From: Rhodocyclaceae bacterium
GTDB taxonomy: Bacteria > Pseudomonadota > Gammaproteobacteria > Burkholderiales > Rhodocyclaceae
NCBI GenBank assembly: GCA_035335645.1
Contig: DAOQMM010000007.1
Location: 283 to 64,282, forward strand
Reading direction: 5' to 3'
Length of the DNA: 64,000 nucleotides
Position 1 is the stretch's first letter, and each line of letters starts with the position of its first letter. The notes under the pieces were generated by a model that worked only from the letters and a program-made list of their open reading frames with translations, made no database searches and had not been told where the DNA came from. The position numbers and the translations under genes are program-made. Below are positions 16,135 to 22,360 of this stretch, piece after piece.

Positions 16135-16635
16135 ATGTCCGACAAGACCCTGCTCATCGTCTATCACTCCATGACCGATGCCACCCGGCAGCTGGCCGTG
16201 GCGGTCGCCCATGGTGCCGCGTGCGAGCCGGCCAGCGTCGCCGTGCGCCTGCTGCGGGCGCCCGACGCCAGCCCGGACGACGTGCTGGCGGCCGACGGCT
16301 ACGTGTTCGCCACCCCGGAAAACCTGGCCAGCATGGCCGGGATGATGAAGGACTTCTTCGACCGCTGCTATTACCCGGCGCTCGACCGCGTCAACGGCCG
16401 GCCTTACGCCAGCCTGGTGTGCGCCGGCAGCGACGGCAGCGGCGCCGTGCGCCAGATTGCGCGCATCGCCACCGGCTGGCGGCTGAAGGAGATCGCGCCG
16501 CCCCTGGTGGTGTGCACCCATGCCCAGACGCTGGAAGCCATCCTTGCGCCCAAGGTCGTGGGGGTGGACGCCCTTGCCCGCGGCGAGGAGCTGGGCGCGG
16601 CCTTCGCCACCGGGCTGGCGATCGGCGCCTTCTAG
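16135..16635 (+). CDS. Flavodoxin family protein / NAD(P)H-dependent oxidoreductase
   Basis: LLIVYHSMTDAT, ADGYVFATPENLASMAGMMKDFFDR and AGSDGSGA motifs. Confidence 0.85.
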   Translation: MSDKTLLIVYHSMTDATRQLAVAVAHGAACEPASVAVRLLRAPDASPDDVLAADGYVFATPENLASMAGMMKDFFDRCYYPALDRVNGRPYASLVCAGSDGSGAVRQIARIATGWRLKEIAPPLVVCTHAQTLEAILAPKVVGVDALARGEELGAAFATGLAIGAF

Positions 16636-17870
16636 GCGGCGCACGCCGCCCGCAGCCCGCGGCCGATGTCGACCGCTTCGTCCAGGCGCGGCAGCAGCAC
16701 GGCCACGATGGACGCGTCCACCCGCCCCTGGCCGGCCAGATCGTTCATGAAGGCGGCCACCTCGGGCGGCGGCAGCCCGGCGCGGTAGGGTCGATCCTGA
16801 ATCATGGCCTGGAAGATGTCGGCCACGCGCAGGATGCGCGCCTCGACGGGCAGCTGCTCACCCTGCAGGTGGAAGGGATAACCGCGGCCGTTGGGCTCCT
16901 CGTGGTGCCAGGCTGCCCAGCGGGCGATGTCCTCGAACCCGGCGATGTCCCGCAGGATCTGGAAAGTCTCGAAACTGTGGGTGCGCATCACGGCCCGCTC
17001 GGCCTCGTCCAGCCGGCCGGGCTTGTCGAGGATCTCGTCGGGCACCCGCAGCTTGCCCAGGTCGTGGAGCAGGCCGGCGATCTCGATCCGTTCGCAGGCC
17101 GCGGCGTCCATGTCCAGCGCCGCGGCCAGCAAACGCGCCACGCCGGCCACGCCAATCGAGTGGGCGGCCGTGAAGGGACTCTTGGCGTCGACGATGCAGG
17201 CAAAGATCCCGGCCAGCTGATGCAGCTCCTGCACCGACGCCGGGACGGCCGGCCCGTCGAAGCGGCGGGTGCGAAGGAAGGCCTGGATGGCCCGCGGCTC
17301 CTGCATCAGCCAGAAGGATTCCCGCGCGGAGGCCCGCAGAAAGGCGTCCACCAGGCGCGGATCGAAGTAGTGCCCGGCGTGGCCGGCGATCTCGTCGCGA
17401 ATCCTGCCCGTGTGCAGCAGCAGTTCGCCCCGCGCCTGCCAGGACGCCGCGAGGGCATCGACCCGATCCACCAGGTAGATCAGGTTCGCCTGCCGCGCCA
17501 CGTCGTCGGGTAGCCCGATGGTCGTCAGCACCTCCCAGCGGGTGTGGTGATAGCGCACCGGCAGGGCGAGAGGCTGCAGGGGCGGGAATCGCCCGAGCAG
17601 GGCGAAGCCGGTCTCACAGTGATCCTGGGCACCGTCCCAGTCGAAGTGGCCGACCAGCTTGCCGTGGGTGCGCGTGGATGAGACACCGATGTCGTGGAGC
17701 ATGCCCAGATCGAAGCAGAAGCGGACCTCCGCGTCGGTCAGGCCCAGTTCGCGGGCACATTCGGCCGCCATCAGGCCCACGCGCTTGCCGTGGGCCACGT
17801 CGTCCACGCCCACCAGGTCGAGGGCTTCGGAGAGGGCCTGGATGACGTGGCGGAGATCGGTCTGGGTCAC
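16632..17870 (-). CDS. Tandem HD-GYP domain cyclic-dinucleotide phosphodiesterase
   Basis: Two HD motifs (MLHDIG, LLHDLGK); C-terminal HHEEPNGRGYP and RPYR; N-terminal copy lacks GYP. Confidence 0.9.
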   Translation of the reverse strand: MTQTDLRHVIQALSEALDLVGVDDVAHGKRVGLMAAECARELGLTDAEVRFCFDLGMLHDIGVSSTRTHGKLVGHFDWDGAQDHCETGFALLGRFPPLQPLALPVRYHHTRWEVLTTIGLPDDVARQANLIYLVDRVDALAASWQARGELLLHTGRIRDEIAGHAGHYFDPRLVDAFLRASARESFWLMQEPRAIQAFLRTRRFDGPAVPASVQELHQLAGIFACIVDAKSPFTAAHSIGVAGVARLLAAALDMDAAACERIEIAGLLHDLGKLRVPDEILDKPGRLDEAERAVMRTHSFETFQILRDIAGFEDIARWAAWHHEEPNGRGYPFHLQGEQLPVEARILRVADIFQAMIQDRPYRAGLPPPEVAAFMNDLAGQGRVDASIVAVLLPRLDEAVDIGRGLRAACAA

Positions 17871-18007: not shown

Positions 18008-18442
18008 TCAGCCCCCCTGCCCGTTGCTGTCGCGCCAGAAGCGTTCCATCGCGATGTAGGTGTAGGACGCCGACCAGCCGATCAAGAGCAGCCCGTTGAG
18101 CGCCTCGACGCCCGCCAGCAGCCTCACCGCGCCGCCGGGCACCACATCCCCATAGCCAAGGGACGTGTAGGTTTCCGCCGAAAAGTACAGGGAGACGTCG
18201 AGGGAGAATCGGCTGGATTCGTCCAGCGTGCCGTAGCCGCCCCACTGCACCAGGGCATACACGACCAGCGCATAGAGCGCGATCTCGACGATGTGGGCAA
18301 AGAAGGTCGAGAAGATCACCACCAGCAGGCGCGCCCGCGGGCGGATCGTGAGGGTCGGCAGCAGCAGGCTCAGCCCGCGCAGGACCTCATAATGGATGAC
18401 CGTGGTGACGATCAGCAGTGCCAGGCAGGCCAGTACGACCAT
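18008..18442 (-). CDS. Small potassium channel family protein (Ion_trans_2 pore)
   Basis: YFSAETYTSLGYGD pore/filter motif flanked by TM helices. Confidence 0.85.
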   Translation of the reverse strand: MVVLACLALLIVTTVIHYEVLRGLSLLLPTLTIRPRARLLVVIFSTFFAHIVEIALYALVVYALVQWGGYGTLDESSRFSLDVSLYFSAETYTSLGYGDVVPGGAVRLLAGVEALNGLLLIGWSASYTYIAMERFWRDSNGQGG

Positions 18443-18539: not shown

Positions 18540-19460
18540 TCAGCTCCGGGCGACGCCACCAGCGACCGCCACCCGCGTGCCCTGCGGCGCATGATGCGCG
18601 GCCCGGTAGAAGTTCAGGATGCGGCGCACGTATTCCTGGGTCTCGGCGTAAGGCGGCACGCCGCCGTGACGGGTCACGGCGCCCTCGCCGGCGTTGTAGG
18701 CCGCGGCGGTCAGGGCCACGTCGCCCTTGAACTGGGCCAGCAGCGTACGCAGGTAGGCCAGCCCGCCGCGGATGTTCTGTTCCGGGTCGAGGGCGTCGCG
18801 CACGCCAAAGCGTTCGGCGGTGTCCGGGATGAGCTGCATCAGGCCGACGGCGTTCTTCGGCGAACGGGCCGCGGCGTCGAAGTTGGACTCGGTGCGGACG
18901 ATGGCCAGGGCCAGGCGGGCATCCACGCTGAAGCGCGGAGCGAGCTTCTGGATCAGCTGGGCGTGGCGGCGCTTGTCGGCCGGCAGCGCGCGCACGTAGC
19001 GATCCACAATGTCCTGGGGCACGACCTCGTCAACGACCGCCACGGCCGCCTCCGGCGCCCCGCCGCGGGTCAGACAATCGGGCAGGCGATCACCGGCGGG
19101 GAGCCCGCCCAGCAGGCTGCGGGCGCGCTCGTGCCCGCGTTCGGCGGCCACGGCGAGGAGGTTGACGGCCAGCTGGTTGTCCCGGGCAAGCCCCTGACCG
19201 ATCAGGTACAGGCGGCCAAGGCGATACTGGCCTTCCGTGCTGCCCTCACGGGCGGCGGCGCAGTAGTGGCTGGCGGCCTGCGCGGGCAGGTGTTGACGTT
19301 CGGCCTGGTAGCCACGCTCCAGCAGGCGTGCCACGGCGGGCGCCTCCTCGCTCCATTCCGGCGCGTCCGCCGGGACGGCCTCGAGCGTGCCGCCGCGAGC
19401 CCCACCGGTGACGGCGAGCAGGAGCAGGACGGACAACAGGCGAAGGACGGGACGTAACAT
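18540..19460 (-). CDS. Lytic transglycosylase (SLT domain) with Sel1-like repeat
   Basis: Signal peptide; AIVRTESNF...AVGLMQL...AAYNAGEG...ETQEYV SLT motifs; GQYRLGRLYLIGQG Sel1 pattern. Confidence 0.9.
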   Translation of the reverse strand: MLRPVLRLLSVLLLLAVTGGARGGTLEAVPADAPEWSEEAPAVARLLERGYQAERQHLPAQAASHYCAAAREGSTEGQYRLGRLYLIGQGLARDNQLAVNLLAVAAERGHERARSLLGGLPAGDRLPDCLTRGGAPEAAVAVVDEVVPQDIVDRYVRALPADKRRHAQLIQKLAPRFSVDARLALAIVRTESNFDAAARSPKNAVGLMQLIPDTAERFGVRDALDPEQNIRGGLAYLRTLLAQFKGDVALTAAAYNAGEGAVTRHGGVPPYAETQEYVRRILNFYRAAHHAPQGTRVAVAGGVARS

Positions 19461-19617: not shown

Positions 19618-20601
19618 TCAGACGTGCTCGATGCTCAGCACCACCTGGGTCTGGTTGAGCAGCAGGTAGGCGATCTCGCCAAAGGTCATGGGCCCGGCGA
19701 GGGAACCGCAACGGCGTCCTTCGAGGCCGTGGTACAGGTAGTTGAGGATGCAGTTGCAGGACCACAGGGGCGGTACCTCGGCCTCGGCACCGGTCGGGTC
19801 GCCGAAGCTCACCGGGGCGGCCAGGCGATAGTCCACGTCGTCGAAGACCGGCGCGTAGAAATCCACGCGCCCCGCGGTCTCGTCCACGCCCTTGATGGAC
19901 ACGTTCACCGAGGCCCCGCCGTAGTCGGCCACCAGGGGCAGGCGGGTGTCGGCGGCGCGGGCCTTGAGATAGGCCGCGAATTGGGTCTCGACGCCATTGA
20001 CCTGGCAGCGCTCCGCCGAAAAGCCGGTTTCGGGAAAGCGCAGGGTGTCGCCGTCACCTTGCTGCAGGGCATTGAAGATGTCGATGCGCGCGTACGCGCT
20101 GTCGGGCAGCGGCACGTGCAGGACCACCGCCCGCTCCGTATCGAACGCCAGACGTGGCCCCGCCACCACGGTGGGACTGAGGCGACCGGCGTCGTCCAGG
20201 TGGGTGCCGGCGACCCAGCCGGCCACCGGCTTGATGAACATGTCGGGGAAGGTGGGCGCCTTGCGCGCATAGAGGGAATGCACGGCCGAGAAGGCCGGGA
20301 TGATGATCAGGCTGAAGCCGTTCGCCGGGGCGTCCTCGCAGAGATGCTCCAGGCTGGTGAGATCGTAGCTGCGGATCTCGGGGACGCCCGCCATCACCGG
20401 GATCTCGGTGACGAAGAGCAGCGCCCGGCTGGCCAGCCCGCCCTCGTCGGCCATGAAATAGGGGATGGTCCCGCCGATCCAGTGGCCGGCCGGCAGGCGG
20501 CGCAGCAGGGTCTCGTCGCCGGCAATCATCAGCCATGCGCCGCGGCGGATGAGCGTGGCCGCGTCGTCCACACTCATCAGGCGATTGGTCGGTGCGTTCA
20601 T
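19618..20601 (-). CDS. Conserved hypothetical protein (resembles DUF6976 family)
   Basis: LPAGHWIGGTIPYF, FSCNC-like WSCNCILNYLY and GPMTFGEIAYLLLNQT motifs recalled from this family; normal codon bias. Confidence 0.65.
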   Translation of the reverse strand: MNAPTNRLMSVDDAATLIRRGAWLMIAGDETLLRRLPAGHWIGGTIPYFMADEGGLASRALLFVTEIPVMAGVPEIRSYDLTSLEHLCEDAPANGFSLIIIPAFSAVHSLYARKAPTFPDMFIKPVAGWVAGTHLDDAGRLSPTVVAGPRLAFDTERAVVLHVPLPDSAYARIDIFNALQQGDGDTLRFPETGFSAERCQVNGVETQFAAYLKARAADTRLPLVADYGGASVNVSIKGVDETAGRVDFYAPVFDDVDYRLAAPVSFGDPTGAEAEVPPLWSCNCILNYLYHGLEGRRCGSLAGPMTFGEIAYLLLNQTQVVLSIEHV

Positions 20602-21356
20602 GCGGCCTCCCGGACCAGTTGTCCCAGCTCATAGGTGAGCATGCGCTCGTTCTTCACGAAGTAGCGATGCACGTCCCGCAGCTTCATGCGGCGCACGTCG
20701 GCGTCGGCGATCACGGCCACCTGGGCACGGGTCCGGGACAGCAGCAGCTGCAGGCTCAGCACCCGCACATCCAGCTGCCGTCGCCCTTCCAGCAGGTCCA
20801 GCCAGACCGGGTCGTCCGCCGACGGCACGCGGCTGCCGGCGACACCCCCGGCCACCGGCGCCTCCGTCCGCGGCACGTTCCGCAAGGGCTCGACGCCGGC
20901 CATCGCCGGAGCGGGCGCCTCCTGGCCGCCCGACCCGAGCTGACCGTTCTCCAGCGCATAACGGTAGCGCCACAGCTCCGCCATGGGCAGATCGAGAAAG
21001 GCGCACACCGCCGCCATGCTCACGCCTTCATGGAGCAGCGCGAGCACCTGCCGGTCCAGCGCCCGGGTGAAGGGCATCCCGGCCTCGCCGGCCCAGGCCT
21101 GGCGGGGCATTTCGCCGCCCAGGGGCGGGCGCACGTGCACACGGATCTTCCAGCCACCGAAGCCGGTATGCCGCCAGACCACCTCCGGACCGGATTCGAC
21201 GGGCTTGCCCCGACCGAAGCCGAACCAGCTGCGCGGCGCCTCGACGCCGATCCACACATCCATGCAGCGATTGAATTCATCCGCCCGGGCCTCCCGGACG
21301 GTCCACGGTTCCTGGACCTGCAGCAACTGCCGCCACAGTGCGGACGCATCGGCCAT
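20598..21356 (-). CDS. Hypothetical protein with N-terminal region resembling the ISL3 transposase N-terminus/HTH, no DDE domain
   Basis: QEPWTV, WRH, WAGEAGMPFT and LLHEGVSMAAVCAFL align by eye with ISL3 PW.V/WRH/WA..GS.FT/HTH blocks; stop overlaps next start (ATGA). Confidence 0.6.
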   Translation of the reverse strand: MADASALWRQLLQVQEPWTVREARADEFNRCMDVWIGVEAPRSWFGFGRGKPVESGPEVVWRHTGFGGWKIRVHVRPPLGGEMPRQAWAGEAGMPFTRALDRQVLALLHEGVSMAAVCAFLDLPMAELWRYRYALENGQLGSGGQEAPAPAMAGVEPLRNVPRTEAPVAGGVAGSRVPSADDPVWLDLLEGRRQLDVRVLSLQLLLSRTRAQVAVIADADVRRMKLRDVHRYFVKNERMLTYELGQLVREAA

Positions 21357-21673
21357 AGCCACCTCGCTCGAAGGAAGACGCCCGGAGGCGCCAGAACGGA
21401 GAACCGGCCGCAAGGGACGTGCCAGAATCCGTCCGTTTGCCGGCAGAGCGCCCCCGCAGGCCGTCACCGCCCGCGCTCCGCGCGACACCTCGCCCATGCC
21501 AGGCAGATTGCACCGTCGGGCTGCGCGATGCCGCGTCGCACCATGTCCCGCCGGTGAACACCCTGCGTCCCCAACCTGCTGCAAATCCGATCAACATGCC
21601 CGCGGCGGCCCCGCCCTGCGCGACGGGACGGCCGAAGCGTGGCAGGATGCCGCGAGTCCCGAAGCCCTCCGCC

Positions 21674-22360
21674 ATGACCCGCACCGAACGTCTCTTCACC
21701 CTGATGCAGATCCTGCGCCGCCACCGTCAGCCCGTGAGCGGTACCGACCTCGCCCGCGAGACGGGGGTCAGCCTGCGCACCCTGTACCGGGACATCGCCA
21801 CACTGCAGGCCCAGGGCGCCCACATCGATGGCGAGGCCGGCGTGGGCTACGTCCTGCGTCCGGGTTTCCTGCTGCCCCCCCTGATGTTCAGCGCGGAGGA
21901 GATCGACGCCATTGTGCTCGGCGCACGCTGGGTGACCGAACGTGCGGACCCGGCCCTTGCCGCCGCGGCGCGGGACGCCCTGAGCAAGGTTGCGGCCGTC
22001 CTGCCGGCCCCGCTGCGCCACCAGCTCGACGACGTGCCCCTGCTGATCGGCCCGGTCACCGACAGTGGTCGTGATGCGCACACGGTGGCGCAGCTGCGCA
22101 CGGCCCTGCGCAACGAGCGCAAGCTGTCGATCGACTACCGCGACGAGCACGGCGCCGCGAGCCAGCGCGTCATCTGGCCCTGCGCCCTGGGCTTCTTCGA
22201 ACGTGTCCACGTCCTGGTCGCCTGGTGTGAGCGGCGCGCCGATTTCCGCCATTTCCGCGTTGACCGCATCGAACGGCTGGACCTGCTCGACGCCGGTCTG
22301 CCGCGTCGCCGTCAGGCGCTGCTGCGGGAATGGCGCGCGCGGGAAGGCATCACCGGCTGA
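21674..22360 (+). CDS. YafY-like HTH-WYL domain transcriptional regulator
   Basis: RTERLFTLMQILR...VSLRTLYRDIATL...GEAGVGY; LVAWCERRADFRHFRVDRI. Confidence 0.92.
   Translation: MTRTERLFTLMQILRRHRQPVSGTDLARETGVSLRTLYRDIATLQAQGAHIDGEAGVGYVLRPGFLLPPLMFSAEEIDAIVLGARWVTERADPALAAAARDALSKVAAVLPAPLRHQLDDVPLLIGPVTDSGRDAHTVAQLRTALRNERKLSIDYRDEHGAASQRVIWPCALGFFERVHVLVAWCERRADFRHFRVDRIERLDLLDAGLPRRRQALLREWRAREGITG

Follow-up and report, generated by a model that had tools for sequence, protein, structure and literature searches.

A putative two-gene operon coupling a protein with a very likely ISL3-transposase-derived head to a predicted FIST-fold partner

How does a protein that resembles the front end of a transposase come to be encoded directly before a conserved hypothetical gene, and what might the two proteins do together? 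The question is raised by a stretch of 64,000 nucleotides from a Rhodocyclaceae bacterium (assembly GCA_035335645.1, contig DAOQMM010000007.1, positions 283 to 64,282), which we refer to as the window. Two adjacent genes on its minus strand are at issue: gene A, whose protein (P0001) has an N-terminal domain or ‘head’, a linker and a C-terminal domain (the ‘C-domain’), and gene B, whose protein (P0002) belongs to Pfam family DUF6976. The stop codon of gene A and the start codon of gene B share four bases, ATGA. A first-pass annotation, made from the letters alone, gave these reading frames, translations and overlap correctly, and proposed that gene A encodes a transposase-derived DNA-binding protein co-opted as a regulator beside a sensor-like partner. 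We find that gene A is a conserved host gene under purifying selection, that its C-domain is invariably adjacent to DUF6976, and that its head very likely descends from an ISL3 transposase.

The pair occurs in hundreds of Betaproteobacteria and in some Gammaproteobacteria; cultured carriers are Hydrogenophaga pseudoflava, Methyloversatilis universalis, Dechloromonas denitrificans and Derxia gummosa. The first three look-ups placed DUF6976 directly after gene A, with flanks that differ between genera. In a 400-genome class sample, DUF6976 was present in 9 genomes, and in all 9 a match to the gene A profile lies directly upstream on the same strand. We then scanned 80 further DUF6976 loci from named genomes with hidden Markov models of both gene A domains. 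A C-domain protein stands directly before DUF6976, on the same strand, in 88 of 88 non-redundant loci with readable upstream DNA, so the synteny that the first-pass annotation had put forward as a check is conserved. The distance from the stop of the partner to the start of DUF6976 is short throughout: an ATGA-type overlap (-4) in 21 loci, another overlap in 3, a gap of 0-20 nucleotides (nt) in 49 and of 21-60 nt in 15, and more than 60 nt in none. Beyond the two genes, the 88 loci show no conserved neighbour. The constant link is that of the C-domain to DUF6976, rather than that of the ISL3 head to DUF6976.

Two unusual loci may be recorded here. In one genome (G643) both genes have been lost or have decayed together: at the decayed locus (L103, G643:C1:2204017-2207337) an N-domain fragment runs into pieces of DUF6976, with an internal TGA and deletions. 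Another pair, on a contig labelled as a Bacteroidota metagenome-assembled genome (L057, JBLNBM010000018.1), is 56% identical to the betaproteobacterial one and probably reflects mis-binning of the contig, not transfer.

Gene A behaves as a resident gene of its genome. It is present in one copy in 3.66 Mb, and its G+C content at third codon positions (GC3) is 0.87, with 0.90 for gene B; both values fall inside the range of the neighbouring genes (0.83-0.91), in agreement with the host-like codon usage noted earlier. We collected 99 homologues, which are 42-100% identical, full-length, and share the same start methionine. Their sources include Zoogloea, Hydrogenophaga and other Betaproteobacteria, and their labels are all hypothetical; one database source names a gene A homologue ‘Transposase’. 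That is, the family extends over many betaproteobacterial genera and is not strain-specific.

The ratio of nonsynonymous to synonymous substitution rates (dN/dS), computed by the Nei-Gojobori method for 14 pairs, is 0.10-0.52 in the N-domain, 0.06-0.46 in the C-domain and 0.12-0.59 in DUF6976, and 0.19-1.88, near neutral, in the linker. Synonymous divergence is saturated in several of these pairs; the three whose dS is about 0.1-0.35 give concordant values. Thus the two domains of gene A do not evolve neutrally. Within genera the pair keeps a fixed, syntenic position. Terminal inverted repeats are absent from its flanks: as the first-pass annotation had reported, there are none to be seen around the genes, only short repeats of 14-30 nt with 73-93% complementarity, which are chance-like.

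What, then, is the head? ISL3 transposases (of the IS1001/IS204/IS1096/IS1165 type) combine a zinc ribbon (PF14690), a helix-turn-helix (HTH; PF13542) and a DDE catalytic domain (PF01610). In Pfam, the gene A protein has only a sub-threshold match to HTH_Tnp_ISL3 (17.1 bits against a cut-off of 27.4), and 10 of 35 family members give a weak match to this model. A genome search with the gene A family profile matched true ISL3 transposases with expectation values (E) of 1e-10 to 1e-6. These are multi-copy open reading frames (ORFs) of 340-540 amino acids (aa) in genomes without DUF6976, matched over N-domain positions only; all four that were checked carry Zn_ribbon_ISL3, HTH_Tnp_ISL3 and DDE_Tnp_ISL3, and are bona fide ISL3 transposases. 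When the gene A family was aligned with four true ISL3 transposases by hhalign, residues 7-139 of gene A paired with transposase residues 5-147 over 130 columns (probability 96.9%, E 1.4e-10), and by this profile-profile match we assign the HTH to PF13542. A Foldseek search of AlphaFold DB clusters returned family members first, followed by fragments named for the ISL3 zinc finger or HTH, whose matches cover residues 1-140 with E of 1e-6 to 1e-3. The earlier proposal of a transposase origin was to fall if no significant match to ISL3 domains could be found; with E of 1e-10 to 1e-7 per genome for the family profile, in addition to the hhalign and Foldseek values, it stands.

The same kinship is visible residue by residue. 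In a joint alignment with the four bona fide transposases, W18, F45, H63 and W88 are invariant and F96 is nearly so, and the blocks PW.V, WRH and W..G..FT that had been picked out by eye are therefore real. Within the predicted recognition helix, W129 is invariant across the family alignment and R132 near-invariant. The AlphaFold2 model of gene A (predicted local distance difference test, pLDDT, 79) has four strands followed by three helices at 98-136. A wide PDB structure scan (VIA) likened residues 91-146 to tri-helical HTH domains at Z 5-6, with generic matches that include the Tc3 and IstA transposases, resolvases and regulators. These matches reflect a common modelled fold and are no proof of function.

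Other parts of the transposase are missing from gene A. The DDE domain has no Pfam match in P0001 or in its longer 328-aa frame, whereas the true ISL3 proteins match it in the same test at E 1e-68 to 1e-75, and P0001 contains no CxxC pair at all; both absences had been remarked on in the first-pass annotation. The ribbon strands homologous to those of the transposases are still there, with the knuckles deleted or substituted. In multi-repeat relatives of gene A (see below), CPYC...CDC, CPRC...CGC and similar motifs occupy the alignment positions of the transposase CxxC knuckles. Both knuckles are kept in 20 of 118 head-bearing representatives, namely in 1 of 41 single-repeat and 19 of 77 multi-repeat proteins. 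Since such natural intermediates keep the zinc ligands, descent of the gene A head from an ISL3 transposase is very likely. Two ISL3 transposases with an intact DDE domain (L009:14-1240 and L011:402-1631) have themselves lost most of the ribbon cysteine ligands (Zn_ribbon E about 1e-4), so ligand loss occurs in apparently functional transposases too.

Residues 1-140 of gene A thus share with ISL3 transposases a profile, a predicted fold and the order of a beta unit followed by an HTH. Gene A differs from them in having no DDE domain, CxxC ligands or terminal inverted repeats; in being single-copy, host-fixed and under purifying selection; and in the fusion of its head to a new C-terminal domain and its coupling to a FIST gene. 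Other regulators are derived from transposons: bacterial TldR comes from TnpB, and the eukaryotic Pax, THAP and BED factors from transposase DNA-binding domains. Like these, gene A has kept the targeting part of a transposon, has lost catalysis and is a conserved host gene; unlike them, it has ISL3 as its source, and its head is combined with a FIST sensor. A literature search for an ISL3-derived, host-domesticated protein family returned only unrelated papers.

The second constituent of gene A, the C-domain, is a new repeatable module. The family alignment separates a conserved N-domain (1-140) and a conserved C-domain (178-252) by a Pro/Ala/Gly-rich linker that varies in length and sequence, and for which the model has pLDDT below 50 (residues 142-173). 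The C-domain carries the signature P..DP.W..L..G...L.L..LL.R.R....R..YF.K....E.., and is modelled as four helices at residues 183-251 with pLDDT of about 90, which bears out the earlier description of a C-terminal helical domain unrelated to ISL3. It has no match in Pfam or in PDB sequence profiles. In AlphaFold DB, two unnamed small proteins match the C-domain alone by Foldseek, one with a template modelling score (TM) of 0.83. For the whole gene A model, Foldseek found no PDB match below E 0.29, and NCBIfam has no match for either protein of the pair.

A profile built from 30 C-domains found 800 clusters at E <=0.001 among 1.84 billion representatives. We determined architectures for 143 new entries among the best 150 of these 800 clusters, and an ISL3-derived head is present in 118 of the 143. 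Writing N for the head and C for the C-domain, the counts are N-C, 41; N-CC, 14; N-CCC, 40; N-CCCC, 16; N-5C, 5; N-6C, 2; and 25 with no recognised head, mostly fragments. For example, in several gammaproteobacterial lineages the ORF upstream of DUF6976 is 450-640 aa long and consists of one head and three to five C-domains. We considered whether small stand-alone C-domain proteins are the ancestral, common form, and dropped the idea: there are only 31 small matches, many of them contig fragments, and the form with head and C-domain predominates. In one metagenome fragment (P0330) a pair of C-domains runs in frame into the N-terminal half of DUF6976; this single case could be a natural fusion, a lost stop codon or an artefact.

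Gene B is a full-length DUF6976 protein (PF22396; 431.5 bits, above the gathering score, E 2e-129, profile positions 1-321 of 321), as the first-pass annotation had it. At 90% identity the family falls into 5,284 clusters or more, none of them named. Its alignment has invariant His108, His162 and Cys284, and a search of PDB sequences with its profile gave no match. The AlphaFold2 model of gene B (pLDDT 92) shows a two-lobed FIST_N/FIST_C fold. Among ESM Atlas representatives it aligns over 291-321 residues, with a TM by query of 0.74-0.81, to proteins with FIST and FIST_C domains, namely chemoreceptors (methyl-accepting chemotaxis proteins, MCPs), histidine kinases, SpoIIE phosphatases and diguanylate cyclases (GGDEF), and the nearest families to DUF6976 in language-model features are FIST families. 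It is this modelled fold that lends substance to the earlier epithet ‘sensor-like’. A literature search found no paper that mentions DUF6976; with the pairing in every readable locus, this accords with the suggestion of an undescribed two-gene system.

The best match in the PDB is FBXO22 (8s7d, 8ua3; probability 0.97, E 5e-3), a eukaryotic F-box protein whose FIST domain recognises a protein partner. The likeness has limits: TM is only 0.40, DUF6976 has no F-box, and it belongs to another kingdom, with no ubiquitin system. A review describes NosP and other solo FIST-FIST_C proteins as auxiliary sensors for a kinase encoded by a gene of its own (PMC8846402). As with NosP and NahK, the pair described here places a solo FIST-fold protein beside the partner that it presumably controls; unlike NahK, a histidine kinase, that partner is an HTH protein of transposase descent, equipped with a docking-like domain.

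The DNA upstream of gene A offers a view of how the operon may be expressed. On the motif, its conservation and the presence of rpoN in the source genome, the operon in the window's clade is predicted to be transcribed from a sigma-54 promoter: TGGCACGTCCCTTGC fits the consensus TGGCAC-N5-TTGC (GG-N10-GC) and is kept in the clade's ten aligned loci. Of 86 upstream regions, 18 contain the strict motif; the opposite strand has none, and the expectation from shuffles is 0.1. Hydrogenophaga loci have the variant TGGAACGG-N3-TTGC, and Dechloromonas and Azonexus loci the weaker TAGCACGCTCCTTGCT. A scan for sigma-70-like promoters upstream of gene A gave none, and a scan for terminators gave one terminator-like match, no more than the shuffled control. 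With a sigma-54 promoter, an enhancer-binding protein should be needed for expression.

About 100-160 nt further upstream of the promoter lie two conserved boxes, so that the upstream region holds TTTGCAGCA and ACATGGTGCG. In 81 upstream regions the word TTGCAGC(A) ranks among the commonest 7-mers and first among 8-mers, and it occurs at 18 loci in several clades; it exceeds the shuffled expectation only modestly, and these loci are related. Boxes like TTGCAGCA recur in other clades. The boxes may be candidate enhancer or operator sites, either for an enhancer-binding protein or for gene A itself. We also considered NtrC or NifA sites, and dropped them since the spacing fits neither consensus. 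The features of the locus are collected in Table 1 together with four neighbouring genes, none of which is kept beside the pair in other genera.

Table 1. Position, strand and content of the gene pair, its upstream elements and its neighbours in the window.
Feature	Position	Strand	Description
Gene A (P0001)	20598..21356	-	ATG 21356 to TGA 20598; 252 aa; head (very likely ISL3-derived), flexible linker and C-domain
Gene B (P0002)	19618..20601	-	ATG 20601 to 19618; 327 aa; Pfam DUF6976, stand-alone protein of predicted FIST fold
N-domain, residues 1-140	20937..21356	-	four-strand beta unit (ligand-less zinc ribbon) and tri-helical HTH at about 93-136
Linker, residues 141-177	20826..20936	-	low-complexity, Pro/Ala/Gly-rich
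C-domain, residues 178-252	20601..20825	-	unnamed helical domain of about 75 aa
Predicted sigma-54-type promoter	21410..21424	-	TGGCACGTCCCTTGC; starts 68 nt upstream of gene A ATG
Upstream box	21586-21575	-	ATTTGCAGCAGG; conserved block in upstream alignment
Upstream box	21561-21529	-	GTGTTCA-N8-ACATGGTGCG...; conserved block in upstream alignment
Neighbour	21674-22360	+	divergent HTH_11-WYL (YafY-like) regulator
Neighbour	16632-17870	-	HD-GYP-type HD_5 protein
Neighbour	18008-18442	-	small two-transmembrane ion channel
Neighbour	18540-19460	-	Sel1-SLT lytic transglycosylase

How might these parts work together? The pair could be a signal-responsive regulator, in which the FIST sensor controls the transposase-derived DNA-binding head by way of the C-domain; we judge this to be an evenly balanced proposition. 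The two genes would then form an autonomous operon encoding a host-domesticated signalling pair. The head of gene A would consist of the beta unit or zinc-ribbon remnant and the HTH inherited from ISL3, its catalytic domain and zinc ligands having been lost. Translational coupling would cause the FIST protein to be made in fixed proportion to gene A; the FIST protein would dock on the C-domain; and, depending on a small ligand, it would switch the head between a DNA-bound and a DNA-free or inactive state. In NosP and CdpA the small ligand is haem or nitric oxide. The outcome would be the regulation of target genes, probably with the pair's own promoter among them. The physical complex between the C-domain and FIST, the binding of DNA by the head and the control by ligand are all steps that we infer. 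The variable number of C-domains suggests that one sensor may be bound per repeat. HTH regulators, FIST sensors and domesticated transposases are all of known kinds; what is new is their combination, and the docking-like repeat.

Several observations weigh against such a regulator. The zinc ribbon, presumably used by ISL3 transposases, is destroyed in gene A, and the HTH of gene A is not basic (isoelectric point 5.6, against a family median of 8.2). The Pfam FIST models (PF08495 and PF10442) have no sequence match to gene B at E up to 10, which also sets DUF6976 apart from NosP. The upstream boxes may be sites for an enhancer-binding protein that has nothing to do with the pair. Metatranscriptome contigs yield sparse, low-depth pieces over both genes and upstream of the promoter as well, indistinguishable from DNA carry-over. 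Finally, the head itself is absent or replaced in some relatives: GrpE stands in its place in two loci (L098 and L099), and a few relatives are headless, with only a C-domain ORF of 77-92 aa before DUF6976 in L014 and L087. Such exchange and absence imply that the conserved function lies in the C-domain and DUF6976, and need not involve DNA.

The main rival takes up this last point. The gene A family may provide an adaptor or scaffold, whose C-domain repeats recruit DUF6976, as one molecule or as several, and whose head is a dimerisation or protein-targeting module instead of a transcription factor. The ISL3 remnant would then not bind DNA, the GrpE head would target DnaK, and control would be exerted at the protein level, for example by regulated recruitment of a chaperone or partner. 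Besides the headless ORFs, the lost zinc ligands and the acidic HTH of the window protein, this idea draws on the complete GrpE with two C-domains that directly precedes DUF6976 in L098:6001-7278 and L099:497-1792, on repeat numbers from 1 to 6, as docking sites would show, and on FBXO22, the only solved FIST structure, which is a protein-recognition module. (The GrpE proteins of L098 and L099 are paralogues encoded outside a dnaK operon.) A GrpE head also suggests that the head is an interchangeable output; this fits the logic of signalling, yet it equally allows an adaptor with no role at DNA. What speaks for DNA is the prevalence of the ISL3-derived head, by far the commonest among the top representatives; purifying selection on the head that is as strong as on the rest, with conservation of the HTH residues shared with transposases; and the fact that swapping of output domains is also characteristic of genuine signalling systems in which DNA binding is the most frequent output. 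On balance we regard the adaptor as unlikely, but as a serious contender.

A less probable alternative, which we consider doubtful at best, is that the pair serves a Chp/Wsp-like chemosensory pathway as an accessory input or regulator, feeding its signal into adjacent REC, CheW, MCP or CheA genes. A REC protein does follow DUF6976 in five gammaproteobacterial multi-repeat loci (L012, L013, L015, L016 and L017), and in L089:6864-12827 genes for CheW, a HAMP-MCP and a CheA-Hpt-REC hybrid come after the REC gene, in a cluster of Chp/Wsp-like type; in L014 the N-terminus of the next ORF is CheR-like, by eye only. The REC protein of the multi-repeat loci has a conserved N-terminal extension. However, neither the window nor any single-repeat betaproteobacterial locus has a chemosensory gene nearby, L096 lacks the cluster too, and there is no conserved third gene; a chemosensory role would therefore be a lineage-specific use at most.

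A toxin-antitoxin or anti-phage defence pair, to which a compact, translationally coupled two-gene cassette of patchy distribution might point, is very improbable: PADLOC has no match for either protein, neither contains a nuclease, kinase or other effector fold, and the locus is syntenic within a genus, not island-like, and flanked by housekeeping genes. A decaying ISL3 insertion-sequence remnant lying by chance beside a conserved hypothetical gene, as the weak HTH_Tnp_ISL3 match and the single ‘Transposase’ label might suggest, is rejected on the conservation data as having next to no likelihood, given a single-copy gene with neither terminal repeats nor a DDE remnant, conserved over its full length across genera at dN/dS of 0.1-0.5, and invariant in its synteny and start/stop coupling with DUF6976.

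We return, then, to the signal-responsive regulator, and to a broader form of it that we offer tentatively, as something less than probable: the C-domain may be a dedicated docking module for the solo FIST protein DUF6976, with one to six repeats joining the sensor to swappable heads, mostly ISL3 and in some cases GrpE. If this is true, gene A and its relatives would stand as the first family of ISL3 transposases domesticated by a host, and would also supply the first defined class of non-kinase output partners for solo FIST proteins.

What the locus means for these families can be put as follows. Some 800 partner clusters (at 50% identity) and the DUF6976 clusters, now labelled hypothetical or, wrongly, transposase, could gain a rationale for their annotation. 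As a bacterial example of a conserved host gene that has taken up the DNA-binding module of a transposase, gene A is clear, with natural intermediates that retain the zinc ligands. FIST domains are widespread, and how they bind ligands and propagate signals is little understood (PMC8846402). If the reading given here is true, an obligate, compact pair of a FIST protein and its partner, joined through a small docking domain, would offer a manageable model of how FIST proteins transmit signals.

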